Positions 2,157-57,742 of a stretch of DNA of 64,000 nt are shown here, piece by piece (within the stretch, counting starts at the first letter, position 1; every line of letters starts with the position of its first letter). The stretch is from the NCBI RefSeq assembly GCF_056746865.1, contig NZ_CM163382.1; one strand, given 5' to 3'. The notes under the pieces are model-generated. The model saw nothing but the letters and a program-made list of their open reading frames with translations. It was not told where the DNA came from and did no database searches. Both the position numbers and the translations under genes were made by a program.

Positions 2157-2422
2157 GGTCATTCTCCTTTACGGTGATAACCGTCGCGTAAGCAAAAAAT
2201 TGCCCCATTTTTTTGGATTCCTCAGCGACAACAACTGTCGATTTTTAGTAAATATCTATCCGGTACGAAGCCCGGCCTCTTGGTATGAATGATTGGTTTG
2301 AAGCAAAAAATAACCGACGCTGATGAAACGTCGGTTTTTAGTCATTTTTTGACAGCGGCGCATTGTGCCTAAATGGGGGGGAAATGACAAGAGAATGAGA
2401 GGCTTGTCATAATAATTTTTCT

Positions 2423-5089: not shown

Positions 5090-5140
5090 ATGACACGCGT
5101 TCAATTTAAACACCACCATCATCACCATCATCCTGACTAG
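5090..5140 (+). CDS. hisL: his operon leader peptide
   Basis: ATG ACA CGC GTT CAA TTT AAA CAC CAC CAT CAT CAC CAT CAT CCT GAC TAG = MTRVQFKHHHHHHHPD, with seven consecutive His codons. Confidence 0.95.
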   Translation: MTRVQFKHHHHHHHPD

Positions 5141-5200
5141 TCTTTCAGGCGATGTGTGCTGGAAGACATTCAGATCTTCCAGTGGTACATGAACGCATGA

Positions 5201-5238
5201 GAAAGCCCCCGGAAGATCACCTTCCGGGGGCTTTTTTA
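5201..5238 (+). terminator. his attenuator (leader Rho-independent terminator)
   Basis: GC-rich inverted repeat agcccccggaag...cttccgggggct followed by a T run (ttttttatt), between hisL and hisG. Confidence 0.85.
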
Positions 5239-5285
5239 TTGCGCGGTTGATAACGGTTCAGACAGGTTTAAAGAGGAATAAGAAA

Positions 5286-29449: not shown

Positions 29450-30349
29450 TTAAATTGCTGTAGTCGTAAATAATTCGTTGAGCATGCGTTTCACACCAAC
29501 CTGCCAGTCAGGCAAGACAAGCGCAAAATTCTGCCGAAATTTTTCTGTATTAAGTCGAGAGTTATGTGGACGACAAGCTGGTGTAGGATAGGCTGTCGTT
29601 GGTACCGCATTGAGTTTGTTGAGTGCGAGGGGAATATCTGCTTTGCGCGCCTCTTCAAAAACCAGCGCAGCATAATCGTACCAGGTCGTGGTACCACTGG
29701 CTACCAGATGGTACAAGCCTGCGACATCCGGTTTATTCAGTGCGACACGAATGGCATGTGCTGTACAATCGGCCAGAAGCTCAGCACCCGTTGGTGCGCC
29801 AAATTGATCGTTTATCACAGCCAACTCTTCGCGTTCTTTTGCCAGACGCAACATCGTTTTGGCAAAATTATTTCCTTTACCAGCGTATACCCAGCTGGTA
29901 CGGAAAATAAGATGCTTTGCGCAATGTTCTTGTAACGCTTTTTCCCCAGCTAGCTTAGTTTCACCGTAAACATTTAGCGGCGCTGTTGCATCCGTTTCCA
30001 GCCATGGCCTGTCACCACTGCCAGGGAAAACATAATCGGTGGAGTAGTGTATAACCCAAGCTCCAACTTCATTTGCTGCTTTCGCAATCGCTTCGACACT
30101 TGTTGCGTTAAGTAATTGTGCAAACTCCGGTTCTGATTCTGCTTTGTCTACTGCGGTGTGAGCGGCTGCGTTGACAATAATATCAGGCCGAATGCTTCTT
30201 ACGGTTTCAGCTACACCTTCAGGATTACTAAAATCACCACAGTAATCAGTGGAGTGAACATCAAGAGCAATCAAATTACCCAAAGGTGCCAGAGCACGCT
30301 GTAGTTCCCAACCTACCTGCCCTGTTTTGCCGAATAGGAGGATATTCAT
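29450..30349 (-). CDS. rmlD: dTDP-4-dehydrorhamnose reductase
   Basis: 299 aa ORF ([30 protein letters not shown]...). Confidence 0.95.
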   Translation of the reverse strand: MNILLFGKTGQVGWELQRALAPLGNLIALDVHSTDYCGDFSNPEGVAETVRSIRPDIIVNAAAHTAVDKAESEPEFAQLLNATSVEAIAKAANEVGAWVIHYSTDYVFPGSGDRPWLETDATAPLNVYGETKLAGEKALQEHCAKHLIFRTSWVYAGKGNNFAKTMLRLAKEREELAVINDQFGAPTGAELLADCTAHAIRVALNKPDVAGLYHLVASGTTTWYDYAALVFEEARKADIPLALNKLNAVPTTAYPTPACRPHNSRLNTEKFRQNFALVLPDWQVGVKRMLNELFTTTAI

Positions 30350-31434
30350 TACTGGCGGCCCTCATAGTTCTGTTCAATCCACGATTGATAGGCGCCACTT
30401 TTCACATTATCAACCCATTTTGTATTGGACAGGTACCATTCCACCGTCTTTCGAATCCCGCTCTCAAACGTTTCTTGCGGTTTCCAGCCCAATTCACGGC
30501 TAATTTTATCGGCATCGATCGCATAACGGCGATCATGCCCTGGGCGATCAGCAACATAAGTAATTTGCTCACGATAAGATTTCTCTTTCGGTACAATCTC
30601 ATCCAGCAAATTACAAATAGTGAGCACTACATCAATGTTTTTCTTTTCGTTGTGCCCACCAATGTTATAAGTTTCACCCGCTTTACCTTCGGTTACGACG
30701 GTATATAATGCACGCGCATGATCTTCAACATACAGCCAATCACGAATTTGATCCCCTTTGCCATAAATAGGTAATGCCTTACCTTCCAGAGCATTAAGAA
30801 TTACTAGTGGAATCAATTTTTCCGGAAAGTGATAAGGACCGTAGTTATTCGAACAGTTAGTCACAATGGTCGGTAAACCATAGGTACGTTTCCACGCGCG
30901 GACTAAATGATCGCTGGATGCTTTGGATGCGGAATAAGGGCTGCTTGGTGCGTAAGCTGTTGTCTCAATAAATAAGGGTAATTTTTCTTTATTATTTACT
31001 TCGTCAGGATGAGGCAAATCACCATAGACTTCGTCAGTAGAAATATGATGAAAACGGAAGCTATTTTTCTTGTCGCTATCAAGAGCAGACCAGTAATTGC
31101 GAGCAGCTTCCAAAAGGACATAAGTACCAACAATATTGGTTTCAATAAATGCCGCAGGGCCTGTAATTGAACGGTCAACATGGCTTTCAGCAGCCAGGTG
31201 CATCACTGCATCCGGCTGATGCTGAGAAAAAATTCGCGCCATTGCAGCAGCATCGCAAATATCCGCATGTTCAAAAACATAGCGTTCAGAATCAGAAACA
31301 TCAGCAAGTGATTCCAGGTTTCCGGCGTACGTTAATTTATCGACATTAACAACACTATCCTGCGTATTATTTATAATGTGACGAACTATAGCAGAACCAA
31401 TAAATCCTGCGCCACCAGTAACAAGTATCTTCAC
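30349..31434 (-). CDS. rmlB: dTDP-glucose 4,6-dehydratase
   Basis: 361 aa ORF ([39 protein letters not shown]...); first gene of the O-antigen cluster. Confidence 0.95.
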
Positions 31435-31508: not shown

Positions 31509-31548
31509 CACGCTACCGCCCCTGGCTTTACAGCTACCAGAGCACTAC
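31509..31548 (-). promoter_or_regulatory. JUMPstart element with ops site upstream of the O-antigen cluster
   Basis: Plus strand reads cacgctaccgcccctggctttacagctaccagagcactac; its reverse complement contains GGCGGTAGCGTG, the ops motif, oriented with the minus-strand rmlB operon. Confidence 0.85.
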
Positions 31549-31805: not shown

Positions 31806-32699
31806 TTATTCGCTTAACAGCTTCTCAATCCCTTTACGGAACTTCGCCCCTTCTTTGAGGTTGCGTAGTCCATACTTCACGAACGCTTGCATATAACCCA
31901 TTTTTTTACCGCAGTCGTAGCTGTCGCCGGTCATCAGCATGGCATCAACGGACTGTTTTTTCGCCAGTTCGGCAATGGCATCAGTCAGCTGAATACGTCC
32001 CCATGCACCAGGCTGAGTGCGTTCCAGTTCCGGCCAAATATCGGCAGAAAGCACATAGCGACCAACGGCCATGATGTCTGAGTCCAGCGTCTGCGGCTGA
32101 TCCGGTTTTTCGATGAATTCAACAATGCGGCTGACTTTACCTTCGCGGTCCAGCGGCTCTTTGGTCTGGATGACAGAGTATTCAGAGAGGTCACCCGGCA
32201 TACGTTTTGCCAGCACCTGGCTGCGGCCCGTTTCGTTGAAGCGCGCAATCATGGCAGCAAGGTTGTAGCGCAGCGGGTCGGCGCTGGCGTCGTCGATCAC
32301 AACGTCTGGCAGCACCACGACAAATGGATTGTCACCAATGGCAGGTCGTGCACATAAAATGGAGTGGCCCAAACCTAAAGGTTCGCCCTGACGCACGTTC
32401 ATAATTGTCACGCCCGGCGGGCAAATGGACTGTACTTCCGCCAGCAGTTGACGCTTCACGCGCTGTTCAAGGAGAGATTCTAATTCATAAGAGGTGTCGA
32501 AGTGGTTTTCGACCGCGTTCTTGGAAGCGTGAGTTACCAGGAGGATTTCTTTGATCCCTGCAGCCACAATCTCGTCAACGATGTACTGAATCATTGGCTT
32601 GTCGACGATCGGTAGCATCTCTTTGGGAATCGCCTTAGTGGCAGGCAACATATGCATCCCAAGACCCGCTACAGGAATAACTGCTTTTAAATTCGTCAT
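31806..32699 (-). CDS. galF: UTP-glucose-1-phosphate uridylyltransferase paralogue
   Basis: Start trimmed to [39 protein letters not shown] (ATG at 32699), 297 aa. Confidence 0.9.
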
Positions 32700-32873
32700 T
32701 ATTTCATCCACCTGTAAAATGGTTGCTGAATTATAGCTTGTTCGATTTTTTTCGCCAGCATCAATTACCCTGAATTGATTACTGAATTACTTGTGATGTT
32801 ACGCCGCTTCGTTGTGGATTGCAGTAGCATTGTTCCTAAGTATGGCTCCATTTTTCCAGGAATGGTCGCAAAT

Positions 32874-34268
32874 CTACTCTCTCCGTTCCGGCAATCTAAA
32901 GTTAATCTTTTCCACATTAACAATATGGTGATTAATCCTGTCGATATCGACGGAGCTTTGCCCTCTTTCATTCACCGCATGAACATTTGCAAGAGACAGC
33001 AGTGTTTCTTTTTTCGCCATAAACACGCCGCGAACGTCTTTGCGCATGTCGAAGTTCATGCTCAATGCGGGTCCAACTGAGGATTCCTGCATCACATTGA
33101 TATTACGCATAAAAAGATGTTGCGGTTTGTTGTGTAACTCCAGCGACGCACGCTTCATCTCAATGTTAGTCAGCGCCACAAAGGAGACAGCATTCCCGGC
33201 GGAGATTTGAATGCCGCGCAATTTATAAGCAAGATGAGTATTATCCAGTTGAATATTATTCACCCGGAAATTCTGCGGTATCGAGAGATATTTGCCTTTA
33301 ATTACCCCATAGCCGATTAACATCCCGGCACTATTAATCATTTCAATATTATCAATCACAAAGTTGTCACAACCATAAATAGCAACTGTGGCGTTATCAA
33401 TACCTGCTTTCTTACTGAAATCCGGCGTGATATTACGGGCTTTGATATTACGAATAACAAAATGTTTACCATTTTCAACATGGATCAGTTGCCGACAATC
33501 CGATCCCGTGATATTCGCCACGACAAAGTTTTTCACTGCCTGGTCTTCCGGGTAGTTGTTATCATAAGTGCTTCCCGCAAGACCTATGCCAATGCCCCAG
33601 TTGATTTTGCCGTTAGTACAGTTGATGCGCTCGATGACATGGTCAGATATCAAAATATCACGGTCGTTAATCGCCACGTTCCATTCAATAGCGTCGCCCT
33701 GTAAGTCACTGAACTTACAGTTGGTGATGTTGGCACCGATAATCTGATTATGAAATCCCTGGCGTAAGATGGCGTAATTAGCGTGGCTGACAGTGAGGTT
33801 ATCGATGGTCAGGTTGCGCATGACCCGTTTGTTTTTGCCGCCGATATAAATCTGCGTTACCGGATCAAAGCCGCTCATCGCCAGCCCTTTGATGGTGCAG
33901 TCAGAGCCGCGCACATCCAGGGTGATGTTATGCATACTGCCGCCCTCCTCCCCTGTCACCTGGCTGCCGTCCTGTAAGACAAATCGCCCTCTGCCGTTGC
34001 CGCGCAAGCTTCCAAGAATGTGTAACGTTTTACCGGGAGGGATAAAGATGCCGGTGTTGATATTGTCACAAACCAATCCGCCAGGCACGACAACCGTTTG
34101 CCCTTCGCTGAAGGCTTGTTTAAATGAGGCGATCCAGTCGTGAGGGTTGTAGTCGTTAATGTTTACGCTTTGTCGGGCGGATAGTGCACGAGCGAAAGGG
34201 GTATGGAGGAAGGCAAGCGCCGAGCTTGCCGTCAGGAAGGTGCGTCGGGAGAGTTTTTTAAATGGCAT
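32874..34268 (-). CDS. wcaM: Colanic acid biosynthesis protein WcaM
   Basis: 464 aa ORF with N-terminal signal-like sequence ([28 protein letters not shown]); last gene of the colanic acid operon. Confidence 0.85.
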
Positions 34269-41148: not shown

Positions 41149-41254
41149 ATCGTTACCCTTTTTCAGGCAATAGTTGGCCCTGACCGAAGCGGCCAATTTT
41201 GTTTTTGTCGTTATTTACACCGCGGTTTCGCATTCATTGCCTGATGCGACGCTG

Positions 41255-41340
<86 letters not shown>

Positions 41341-42779: not shown

Positions 42780-44003
42780 TTATCCCCGAATATCATTTAT
42801 AAATTGACGTAACACGTTCTCTTTATCGAGCGTGCGTTCGGCATATTCACGTGCCACCGTGTTGTGTTTGGGCAGCAGGAGCGCCTGACGAATCCCCGCC
42901 ACCAGCGCCTCGACCGATTCCGGTTCAACGCAAACCGCAATGCCCGGAAAGGTTTCGCAAAGCTGTCCCAGTTCTGTGTGGGCTTCTGCAGTAATCACCG
43001 CGTTACCGCCTACCGCCAGAATATTGGTCAGTTTCGACGGCAATACGGCATCTGCCGCGCCGCGTTTTTGCACCACCAGATGGCAATCCCCCATCTTCAG
43101 CAGTGCGGGTAAAGCGTCATACGATTGCAGCGGGAAGAATTGCATGTTGTGCAGTCCACGCTGCTGCGCCATTTTTTCCAGCCGCGCTTTGCCGCCGCCC
43201 TGCCCGACAATGGCAAAAATCAGCGGTTCATCACGCAGGCGTTCGGCAGCTTCAATAACGTTTTCCAGCCCCTGCTTTTCACCAATATTGCCGGAGTAAA
43301 GAATGATTTTTTTGTTATCCGGCAGGCCAAGCTGGTTACGAAGTGCATCAACATCGGCGTCTGCAACATGCTGAAAACGGGCGATTTCCGACCAGTTGGG
43401 GAAGAAGATGACGTTTTCCGCCGCCACGCCTTTATCGATGGCTTTATTCATCATCGAACGCGAAATCGTGGAGACGTTATCGACGTTATGCAGTCCGCTA
43501 CGTTCGAACGCCGTCGCCAGCTGTGCCACTTTGCCGCCTTTGCCTTTTCCGGCAAGGCCCAGCCCCAGCATGGCATCTACTTCGTAATCCTGAATATGCA
43601 GCACGGTACGCGCACCAGAGAGTTTCGCCAGCAGGCGCATTCCCGGCGTGCAAAACAGCGTTGGCACCACGCCGATAATGCGATCCGGCTTCCAGCGACG
43701 TTGCGCCATCAGAGGAAAGAAACTGCTGACGGCAAAACTGCCGAGATGTAACAGACGTTTCAGGGTGCTCGGCTGTTTTGGCACGTACAGCGGGCAGCGC
43801 CACACCGTGGCGGCCCCCTCTTCTCGTTTGTACCGCCAGGCGGAATAGTTCTCGCCCACCTGCCATTGCGGGTAGTAAGGCGGTGCGGTAATAACCCGCA
43901 CCTCATGACCTTGTGCCGCCAGCCATTCCACCATCTCTCCGGTGTATTTGCCGATGCCGGTTAACTCCGGCGAGTAGTTAATGCCGTAGACCAGTATTTT
44001 CAT
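42780..44003 (-). CDS. wcaI: Colanic acid glycosyltransferase WcaI
   Basis: 407 aa GT4-type ORF ([24 protein letters not shown]...). Confidence 0.85.
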
Positions 44004-51654: not shown

Positions 51655-51687
51655 AGGTTGTTCTCCCGGCTTATGAGCTTGTTTGCT

Positions 51688-51722
51688 TGCCGGATGCGGC
51701 GTGAGCGCCTTATCCGGCCTAC
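51688..51722. repeat. REP element between wcaA and wzc
   Basis: Palindromic gccggatgcggcgtgagcgccttatccggcctac read directly in the intergenic region. Confidence 0.7.
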
Positions 51723-51746
51723 GGGGCGGTGCGAATGCAGGTGTCG

Positions 51747-54360: not shown

Positions 54361-55500
54361 TTACCAGTTATGAATGTCGCTGGCTGTATCCGTCATGTAA
54401 CGGACACCGCTAATAGTTGGCAGCAACTGATTGATCAGACGGTTCCAGCGGGAAACCGGGGCGGTGGTGACATACACCACGTCATAAGGTTGCAGGCGGA
54501 ATTCTGTCGCCATCACCAGCGACGTCGCATCGGACATATCCAGCTGGTAGATATTGGCAATCTTGCCGTTACGCCCGCCCTCGCCTTTCAACGGACGAAT
54601 GACAAAGATGCCGCTGGCGTTGGAGGTGGTCATGTCGATGCCTTCGGCATTGCCCAGAGCTTCAGTCAGGGTCATGCCGCTAAAGTCCATTTTCAGGGTG
54701 CTCTGTTTCTTCACTTCACCCATCACAAATACTTTCAGATCATCATTACGCGGCACGTAGAGAATATCGCCGGGATAAAGCAGTCGGTTCTGATTGAGGT
54801 CGCCGTTTTGCATCAGCGCCTGCAAAGAAATGCGTTCTTCACGACCATTGTGTGTTAGCACCACGTTGCGCCAGTCAGCGGTGTCGGTCAGACCACCTGC
54901 GGCGTTGATGGCGTCGAGAATGGTCAGTGGTACGTTGGTGATCGCCTGTTGACCGGATTTATTCACCTGACCTGAGATATAGGCCTTTTGCGAGCGGAAG
55001 GCGGCGATATTAACGTCCACCTGCGGGTCAGCGATGTACGTCGCTAAGCGCCCGGTAATATCACTGCGGATTTCAGCGAGCGTTTTCCCGACTACGTGGA
55101 CCTTGCCGATATACGGGTAAAACATAGTGCCGTCAGGCTGTACCCAGTTGCCGGTGTCGCTGGAGCTGCGGTACTGACCGGCTGGCGTGGTGAGTTCCGG
55201 GTGATCCCAGACGGTGACATTAAGAACGTCCCCCGGCCCGACGCGATACTGGTAATTCGCGATCTCACTTTCCAGCGTCATATTGGGGCGCGCTACATTC
55301 GGGCGTGGGCGTAATTGGTCAATCAGGCGCGGGGTCAGCGGATAAACATTCACCATTTTGTCGAGATCGAAATCAGCGTCCTGCTGTTTGATGACGTCTT
55401 TGCCCATCGTCGACATATTGCTGCCCGGAAGTACTGTGCAACCGCTTATCAAGGTTACTGACACCAATAATGGCATCAATTTCATTTTGGATTTCATCAT
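54361..55500 (-). CDS. wza: Outer-membrane polysaccharide export lipoprotein (OPX)
   Basis: 379 aa ORF with lipoprotein signal ([21 protein letters not shown]); first gene of the colanic acid operon. Confidence 0.95.
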
Positions 55501-55678
55501 TGTTTATTTATCACTTTGGCAGAGTAATTATCCTGTGCACTATTAATAGCAATGTCGCCATGCACATTTACCTTGCAGTTAATTGAATAAAAATTTAACT
55601 GGCATCAGTCCTAAAAAAATTGATTTCATCCGCAGGCTATTGACAGAATAATTCAGACTGGTCTTTCAGGCATCCAGA

Positions 55679-55712
55679 CACGCTACCGCCCCTGGCTTTT
55701 TAGCTACCAATA
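55679..55712 (-). promoter_or_regulatory. JUMPstart element with ops site in the colanic acid operon leader
   Basis: Plus strand reads cacgctaccgcccctggctttttagctaccaa; the reverse complement carries GGCGGTAGCGTG upstream of wza. Near-identical to the element at 31509. Confidence 0.85.
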
Positions 55713-56158
55713 CACTGATTTAGTTTAATTTTTCACACCCTCTCAGCATGCAGTCGTTGATGAGAAAGGGTTATTACGGAAATTAACTTCCGAATATAAG
55801 GTGACATTATGGTAATTGAATATTGGCTTTCCAATAATGCAGGAGGAAGTGTTACAGCTAACGGAATAGCAGGCAAGGTAACAATTCGGCAATTGGCTAT
55901 TTTTAAGAATTATATTAAGTGTCATTCAATATGGTTTTTAGGAGTTTCTTTAGGTTGACAATATTTAATATTGCGCCTCCACATGCGATATTTCTTAAAT
56001 AATGTTTTATTATTACCACTTTTAATTCAGGGATAATGTGAGGTTATTACCCTCAAATAATATGAGATAAATAGTGCTGCAACATTGCATTTTTGCCCCG
56101 ATTTATCCATGATCGAATTGTGACATTTGTCATACAACGAATAGGTTTTGTACTTACT

Positions 56159-57742
56159 ATGGAATGGATTGCCGATCCGTCTATCTGGGCCGGGTTAATC
56201 ACGCTGATTGTGATCGAACTGGTCCTCGGCATTGATAACCTGGTCTTTATTGCCATCCTCGCCGAAAAACTACCGCCGAAGCAGCGCGACCGCGCACGGG
56301 TTACCGGGCTGCTGCTGGCGATGTTAATGCGCCTGTTACTGCTGGCGTCAATCTCCTGGCTGGTCACCCTGACTCAACCGCTGTTCAGCTTCCGCTCGTT
56401 TACCTTTAGCGCCCGCGACTTAATCATGCTGTTTGGTGGTTTCTTCCTGTTGTTCAAAGCCACGATGGAGCTGAACGAACGGCTGGAAGGGAAAGACAGC
56501 AATAATCCCACACAACGCAAAGGTGCGAAGTTCTGGGGCGTGGTGACGCAAATTGTGGTACTGGACGCCATTTTCTCACTCGACTCAGTGATTACCGCCG
56601 TCGGGATGGTCGACCATTTACTGGTCATGATGGCCGCCGTGGTTATCGCTATCAGCCTGATGTTGATGGCCAGCAAGCCGTTAACGCAATTTGTTAACAG
56701 TCACCCGACCATCGTTATTCTCTGCTTAAGCTTCCTGTTGATGATTGGCTTTAGCCTGGTGGCAGAAGGTTTCGGCTTCGTCATTCCGAAAGGCTACCTG
56801 TACGCTGCCATTGGTTTCTCGGTGATGATCGAGGCGCTCAATCAGTTGGCTATCTTTAACCGGCGACGTTTTCTTTCCGCTAACCAGACGCTGCGCCAGC
56901 GGACTACCGAAGCGGTAATGCGCCTGCTTAGCGGGCAAAAAGAAGATGCGGAACTGGACGCCGAAACCGCGTCCATGCTGGTGGATCATGGTAACCAGCA
57001 GATCTTTAATCCGCAGGAACGGCGGATGATTGAGCGGGTACTAAATCTTAACCAGCGTACCGTCAGCAGCATTATGACGTCGCGCCACGATATTGAGCAT
57101 ATCGATCTCAACGCGCCGGAAGACGAGATCCGCCAGTTGCTGGAGCGAAATCAGCATACGCGGCTGGTGGTTACCGACGGTGATGACGCAGAAGATTTGC
57201 TCGGTGTTGTTCACGTTATCGACCTGCTACAACAGTCTCTGCGCGGCGAACCGCTCAACCTGCGGGTGTTGATTCGCCAGCCGCTGGTGTTCCCGGAAAC
57301 CTTGCCGTTGTTACCTGCCCTGGAGCAGTTCCGTAATGCCCGCACGCACTTTGCTTTTGTGGTGGATGAGTTTGGCTCGGTGGAAGGGATTGTGACATTA
57401 AGTGACGTCACTGAAACCATTGCCGGTAACTTACCGAACGAAGTGGAAGAGATCGACGCCCGCCATGATATTCAGAAGAATGCGGACGGTTCCTGGACGG
57501 CGAATGGTCATATGCCGCTGGAGGATCTGGTGCAATATGTGCCGCTGCCGCTGGATGAAAAACGTGAATATCACACCATTGCCGGGCTGTTGATGGAGTA
57601 TTTGCAGCGTATTCCAAAACCTGGCGAAGAAGTTCAGGTGGGGGATTATTTGCTTAAAACGTTGCAGGTAGAAAGCCATCGCGTGCAGAAGGTGCAGATT
57701 ATTCCGCTGCGTAAGGATGGCGAGATGGAGTACGAGGTGTGA
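56159..57742 (+). CDS. yegH: TerC-family inner-membrane protein with C-terminal CBS and CorC/HlyC transporter-associated domains
   Basis: Start trimmed to [34 protein letters not shown] (ATG at 56159), 527 aa. Confidence 0.85.

Follow-up and report, generated by a model that had tools for sequence, protein, structure and literature searches.

The stretch of DNA analysed here (the window) comprises 64,000 nucleotides of contig NZ_CM163382.1 from assembly GCF_056746865.1. According to the RefSeq annotation of matching genomes it covers the his / O25-type rfb / galF / colanic acid (wcaM to wza) / yegH region of E. coli. The element under study is flanked by asmA, yegH, wza, wzb and wzc in the RefSeq annotation of identical E. 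coli sequences, and beyond wzc the annotation continues with wcaA to wcaM, galF, the O25-type rfb cluster, gnd, ugd, wzzB and his. The following genes were placed on the window.

30349-31434, minus strand: rfbB (ORFs)
about 31806-32700, minus strand: galF (ORFs)
32874-34268, minus strand: wcaM (ORFs)
54361-55500, minus strand: wza (ORF and RefSeq)
from 56160, plus strand: start of yegH (ORF and RefSeq)
32874-55500, minus strand: colanic acid (cps/wca) operon, wza to wcaM, 22.6 kb (ORFs and RefSeq annotation of matching genomes)

The 22.6-kb colanic acid operon is the transcription unit served by the ops site described below. The gap between wza and yegH measures 659 nt and has a GC content of 35%. 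On its yegH side there is a palindrome, TGACAAATGTCA, at 56121-56132, 28 nt 5' of the yegH start codon, which is kept as ATGACAATTGTCA in most genera and followed by the conserved sequences GATCATGGATAA and AAATGCAATG; it had no Rfam match and is likely an operator or 5'-UTR element of yegH (TerC family). Two other RNA families, ordinary and expected in this window, were the histidine operon leader (RF00514, 131.7 bits, 5116-5239, plus strand) and the sRNA STnc240 (RF02074, 68.2 bits, 2303-2377, minus strand).

JUMPstart and ops elements of RfaH-dependent operons were reportedly the subject of work by Hobbs and Reeves in 1994 and by Bailey, Hughes and Koronakis in 1997. The window holds two copies, and the features needed to compare them are listed here.

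55679-55690, minus strand (wza-sense, non-template): 12-nt ops sequence GGCGGTAGCGTG, RfaH recruitment and pause site, exact match
55679-55717, minus strand: JUMPstart copy 2, 39 nt, CAGTGTATTGGTAGCTAAAAAGCCAGGGGCGGTAGCGTG, Rfam RF01707
31509-31547, minus strand: JUMPstart copy 1, 39 nt, between galF and rfbB in the RefSeq annotation, within the leader of the O25-type O-antigen operon, Rfam RF01707
51684-51729, minus strand: REP-type GC-rich hairpin in the wzc-wcaA gap, an inverted-repeat arm

The 12-nt ops consensus, GGCGGTAGnnTG, was matched exactly by GGCGGTAGCGTG, which starts 190 nt from the wza ATG at 55500. It lies on the wza strand, upstream of the first gene of the operon and downstream of a conserved promoter block from which transcription would start. 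Copy 2 aligned to positions 1-38 of the 38 positions of the RF01707 model with 57.3 bits (gathering threshold 35, E 1.6e-10), and copy 1 reached 56.8 bits (E 2.2e-10). At E <= 1, JUMPstart alone was matched by Rfam over 55450-55900. A JUMPstart/ops element in the colanic acid operon leader had been proposed in an earlier note made from the sequence, and the proposal agrees with the ops consensus, the strand rule, the Rfam model and the fixed distance to wza. The sequence quoted there was exact as text; it was given on the plus strand, as the reverse complement of the functional minus-strand element.

A search of the whole window for GGCGGTAGCGTG gave exactly two occurrences, one at 31509-31520 and one at 55679-55690, each on the minus strand. 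The chance expectation is 0.31 ops matches if one mismatch is tolerated, and 3 of 100 shuffles contained two or more; chance is not a credible explanation of the ops/JUMPstart pair. The shorter 8-mer GGCGGTAG was observed four times against an expectation of 1.29. The two additional 8-mers are located at 43010-43017 and 56270-56277, both on the minus strand. The first of these, in sense orientation inside the cps operon, reads GGCGGTAGGCGG and is without T11, while the other is antisense within yegH, and both were put down to chance. Published ChIP data show no RfaH at intragenic ops sites.

Pairwise alignment of the copies gave 33 identical positions out of 39, with a 21-nt exact run, CACGCTACCGCCCCTGGCTTT (plus strand), then two mismatches and then AGCTACCA, which is the pattern written in the earlier note together with its distance of about 24 kb. 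All six differing positions fall outside ops. The repeat search paired the copies as a direct repeat of 38 nt, 87% identical, with a spacing of 24,170 nt, and this was the best direct repeat in the window. The pair is not the only evident long-distance repeat, as had been claimed, since REP-type inverted repeats of 46 nt and 87% complementarity are also present at 41279-41324 and 51684-51729. The first REP-type repeat, which pairs with the REP after wzc, adjoins an algC RNA motif (RF02929, 77.3 bits against a gathering threshold of 33.8) at 41153-41202 on the minus strand, in the cpsB-cpsG gap within the colanic acid operon. The two JUMPstart copies have identical ops, GCCAGG and GGTAGCT motifs and the same orientation relative to their own operons. 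They differ in the distance from ops start to gene start, which is 86 nt at rfbB and 190 nt at wza, and in the base composition of what they serve, as copy 1 precedes an AT-rich O-antigen operon (30-39% GC) whereas the wza copy precedes cps with 43-57% GC.

Conservation was followed in a comparison set of 80 wza loci from Enterobacteriaceae, one per species, 79 of which had upstream sequence, and in an alignment of 76 species-level sequences. There were two immediate observations. Firstly, of the 79 loci with upstream sequence, 75 carried the 8-mer GGCGGTAG about 190 nt 5' of wza, and one more had it with a single substitution, GGACGGTAGCGTG. Among 69 loci, 68 had an ops-to-ATG distance between 186 and 199 nt, with a mode of 190. 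The second observation was that most JUMPstart columns of the 76-sequence alignment had an identity of 95% or more, whereas conservation was almost absent from the approximately 130 nt immediately 5' of them. Among the same 76 sequences the first eight bases of ops were invariant and variation was confined to the last four positions, the 12-mer variants being GCGTG (63), GCATG (7), GCCTG (3), GCGTA (2) and GCATA (1). Of the four minority forms, three appear in the CFT073 list of ops sequences bound by RfaH.

The three Pseudescherichia-type loci (L035, L036 and L039) kept the Rcs-like boxes, the promoter block and the 3' part of the leader (in L039 at 1560-1980), and no JUMPstart/ops was found in them anywhere in 2 kb upstream of wza. 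These loci are a natural loss of JUMPstart, so the element is dispensable in at least one lineage. In Citrobacter amalonaticus S646 (L045) an insertion of about 118 nt, at approximately 1790-1910, separates conserved leader blocks, and ops stands 308 nt from the wza ATG. The JUMPstart/ops element before wza is real, conserved and previously described.

The same alignment delimited a promoter and three boxes farther upstream.

55501-55841, minus strand: predicted untranslated cps leader, about 340 nt, from the probable transcription start to the wza ATG
55848-55876, minus strand: putative core promoter recognised by conservation, with -35 TTGCCT (55876-55871), a 17-nt spacer, TG (55856-55855) and -10 AACACT (55853-55848)
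55904-55917, minus strand: Box B, TAATATAATTCTTA (TAAGAATTATATTA on the plus strand), the RcsAB-like segment of the earlier note
55939-55952, minus strand: Box A, TAAAGAAACTCCTA, Rcs-like, same orientation as Box B
55984-55997, minus strand: Box C, TAAGAAATATCGCA, Rcs-like, with the best core-base fit

Two near-invariant blocks, CTTGCCTG and TTAGCTG(C/T)AACA, had a start-to-start offset of 16 nt in all 64 sequences that contain both. We take them as a putative weak extended -10 promoter of the form TTGCCT, 17 nt, TG-n-AACACT; the -10 sequence reads AACACT here and AACAAT in most genera. Transcription would then start near 55841, some 7 nt past the conserved -10 block, which would place ops at about +152 to +163 and the box centres near -70, -105 and -150. 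The distance from the promoter module to ops/JUMPstart varied from 158 to 194 nt, and the stretch was unconserved, which is what a transcribed spacer would look like. The earlier note had treated all of 55501-56158 as leader; the conserved, fixed-geometry promoter block at 55876-55848 argues instead for a start near 55841. This block was not detected by a sigma-70 consensus scan over 55450-56200, and the only hit of the scan, TTGGAA-17-CATAAT at 55834-55806, was rejected, being in DNA that is unconserved across genera. A secondary source states that RegulonDB lists two wza promoters, one sigma-70 and one sigma-E. Inspection of the control region by eye gave no convincing conserved match to sigma-E GGAACTT-N16-TCTGA, the supplement of PMC8117528 contained no wza start-site data, and literature searches with the wza box and promoter sequences returned only irrelevant matches. 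In identical genomes PGAP annotates a 49-aa hypothetical protein at 55809-55958 on the plus strand. This call is probably spurious, because it overlaps the cps promoter and boxes and extends into DNA that is unconserved between genera.

The boxes were compared with the RcsAB box (Wehland and Bernhard, 2000), whose consensus is TaAGaatatTCctA with T1, A3, G4, T10 and C11 as the most conserved bases. No match to this consensus with up to three mismatches was found in the wza-yegH intergenic region, nor did the RcsB pseudo-palindrome TNRGANNNNTCYNA have an exact match there. With one mismatch the window contains 62 copies of the palindrome, where chance predicts 63.6, and motif matching by itself is therefore without discriminating power. 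For the Rcs-like boxes only conservation and geometry carry weight. In the wcaM-galF gap, TAGCATTGTTCCTA at 32825-32838 has one mismatch to the RcsB palindrome; in Klebsiella an RcsAB box lies upstream of galF. The match seen here may be due to chance.

Box B matched TAAGAATATTCCTA at 10 of 14 positions and at four of the five core bases, a fit that does not exceed what chance would give in such AT-rich DNA. Its mean column identity was 0.85, compared with a background of 0.49, and 74 of the 76 sequences contain TCTTAAAA, which precedes the -35 block by 30-31 nt. Box A also matched at 10 of 14 positions and four of five core bases (conservation 0.81), and TCCTAAAA, seen in 63 of the 76, precedes Box B by 34-35 nt. 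Box C matched at 9 of 14 positions yet had all five core bases, T1, A3, G4, T10 and C11 (conservation 0.72); three divergent loci, L023, L024 and L031, have TGAGGATATTCCTA or TGAGGATAATCCTA at the aligned position. The three boxes match the RcsAB consensus at 9-10 positions out of 14 and share one orientation, and all precede the conserved promoter block at fixed distances, with column identities of 0.72-0.85 over the background of 0.49. A functional RcsAB box in Yersinia matches only 9 of 14 positions, and two boxes precede the start of rcsA by about 170 bp. The AT-rich segment for which an RcsAB-like character had been suggested was placed at 55895-55910 in the earlier note, whereas the quoted 'taagaattatattaag' is at 55904-55919. 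The segment is indeed strongly conserved; it is upstream of the promoter rather than in the leader, and is not the best candidate for a canonical RcsAB box. Box B is plausibly a real conserved upstream regulatory site and part of an Rcs-type array, and the region may carry a fixed-geometry array of three Rcs-type boxes instead of a single documented RcsAB box.

A different assignment of the AT-rich sequence at 55904-55917 is that it is not an Rcs site at all but could be a -10 hexamer (TATAAT, 55913-55908), an UP-element or a site for a nucleoid protein. In E. coli a perfect TATAAT does lie inside the box, and if it served as -10 hexamer, Box A would be centred near -44, as a class II activator site. 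The modest RcsAB match and the chance-level count of the palindrome fit this assignment, as do the 35% GC of the intergenic region and the binding of H-NS there in CFT073 (Hustmyer et al., 2022; PMC9765446). However, most other genera read TATTAAT, losing A2 or T6 of the hexamer, and there is no conserved -35 at the proper distance. Boxes A and B, moreover, share an RcsB-type half-site TC(C/T)TA plus AAA, and the spacings from A to B and from B to the promoter block are fixed. We regard the assignment as possible, though doubtful.

The leader itself was examined at the RNA level. A hairpin of 5 bp is possible within the 5' half of JUMPstart, with 55710-55706 pairing to 55696-55692, and RNAalifold on 40 leaders returned this stem and a small stem overlapping ops, and no others. 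Double changes occurred at one pair of the JUMPstart stem only, the outer pair, which was U-A in 20, U-G in 17 and C-G in 2. An RNA-level role of JUMPstart is by these data neither supported nor excluded. The stronger proposition, that JUMPstart acts mainly as RNA, with a hairpin UUGGU...GCCAG and G-rich tail in the nascent transcript binding a protein or stabilising a pause and with the DNA ops secondary, agrees with the classification of JUMPstart by Rfam as a cis-regulatory RNA motif with a stem, with the recovery of that stem and the switching outer pair, and with a 5' half conserved as well as ops, a feature left unexplained if RfaH recognises just the 12-mer. On the other hand, variation is nearly absent from four of the five pairs, so there is almost no covariation (covariation term -0.42 kcal/mol). 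Established biochemistry, as papers citing Artsimovitch and Landick (2002) relate it, puts RfaH recognition on the non-template DNA strand, and the same strand rule holds in CFT073 ChIP, where RfaH binds only non-template ops sites in leaders (PMC9765446). We consider a mainly RNA-based action improbable.

The leader 3' of ops (55501-55653, minus strand) was constrained in sequence as well, with conserved blocks ATTATTCTGTCAATAGCC, TTTTTAGGACTGATGCCAGTTAAATT and GCACAGGATAATTACTCTGCCAAAGTGATAAATAAACA; conserved stretches occupy 55653-55636, 55617-55592 and 55537-55501. This part had no Rfam match and no conserved structure by RNAalifold in the 40 leaders, and the minimum free energy fold of the 348-nt leader was no better than that of shuffles (z = -0.93). 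A canonical Shine-Dalgarno sequence is lacking before wza, where only GUGAU is seen, and literature searches on the wza 5'-UTR or its regulation by sRNA gave nothing relevant. The constrained 3' leader might couple the RfaH-loaded polymerase to the wza translation start, or bind a regulator.

Direct data on RfaH at this element come from CFT073, in which the ops sites were catalogued and ChIP placed RfaH at eight sites in leaders, those of wzx/rfb and wza among them (Hustmyer et al., 2022; PMC9765446). In Data set S2A of that paper the wza ops is GGCGGTAGCGTG at -190 from the first gene, and is occupied by RfaH in an hns stpA double mutant; the signal is absent in an rfaH mutant. The wza ops had no RfaH signal in the wild type in rich medium, where the promoter is silent, in contrast to the rfb ops, which was occupied in the wild type. 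The authors concluded that wza-wcaM is a cryptic RfaH-regulated locus which needs an initiation signal to overcome H-NS silencing. The 12-mer, the strand rule and the -190 position are identical in the window. In E. coli K-12 (Stout, 1996) and CFT073 (Hustmyer et al., 2022) the wza JUMPstart is also upstream of a long polysaccharide operon, and apart from strain background, here with an O25-type rfb neighbour, nothing substantive differs. Navasa (2013) states that genes downstream of wzc require RfaH, and a JACS Au paper from 2023 cites Stout (1996) and Hobbs and Reeves (1994) for the JUMPstart-RfaH mechanism at the colanic acid operon. The claim that both polysaccharide operons of the window are tied to RfaH-type antitermination is thus supported by consensus, by conservation and by CFT073 ChIP at the wza and rfb/wzx ops sites.

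That the wza copy should be a functionless relic, owing its persistence only to a low rate of mutation or to gene conversion with its rfb counterpart while cps is controlled solely through RcsAB-driven initiation, is very hard to sustain, since the Pseudescherichia-type loss with the rest of the control region kept and the missing RfaH signal in wild-type CFT073 have to be set against an element near-invariant in 76 species-level sequences next to almost unconserved DNA, binding of RfaH to the wza ops once the promoter fires (PMC9765446), and differences between the copies that all avoid ops, which fits selection on ops over recent conversion.

We are highly confident in identifying the element as the JUMPstart/ops site of the colanic acid (cps/wca) operon in E. 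coli and as the boarding point of RfaH. Its sequence, strand, position, conservation and membership in the covariance-model family were observed here, and RfaH occupancy and mechanism are taken from the literature. Transcription would begin at a weak, activator-dependent promoter lying, by its conserved blocks, about 150 nt upstream of ops; according to the literature H-NS keeps this promoter silent until it is activated by RcsB/RcsA, which would act at the upstream boxes if these are assigned correctly. RNA polymerase would enter the leader and pause at GGCGGTAGCGTG, and the paused complex would expose the non-template (minus) strand, on which ops would recruit RfaH as established biochemically. 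RfaH would stay on the polymerase, exclude NusG and suppress pausing and Rho- or H-NS-dependent termination, and the modified polymerase could then reach the distal genes of the 22.6-kb operon, past the REP hairpin after wzc. The 96-nt wzc-wcaA gap folds with -29.2 kcal/mol (z = -1.9) and has no U tract. By analogy and from the statement of Navasa (2013), the REP hairpin at 51684-51729 is a candidate internal attenuator that RfaH-modified polymerase would pass. The ops upstream of rfbB would have the same role for the O-antigen operon.

The site marks the handover of colanic acid operon transcription to RfaH, and ops/JUMPstart explains the 39-nt sequence common to the capsule and O-antigen operons; its value is in annotation, and the known mechanism is unchanged. 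For engineering of the cps promoter the corrections made here are useful, i.e., that the minus strand is the functional one, that the leader probably starts from about 55841 and that the boxes are upstream of the promoter. Only tentatively do we suggest that the control region holds undescribed parts, namely the three-box Rcs-type array and the constrained 3' leader; the Pseudescherichia lineage without JUMPstart would act as a natural control. The wza-yegH footprint in 76 Enterobacteriaceae maps the promoter, the boxes and the constrained 3' leader in a form that can be tested.
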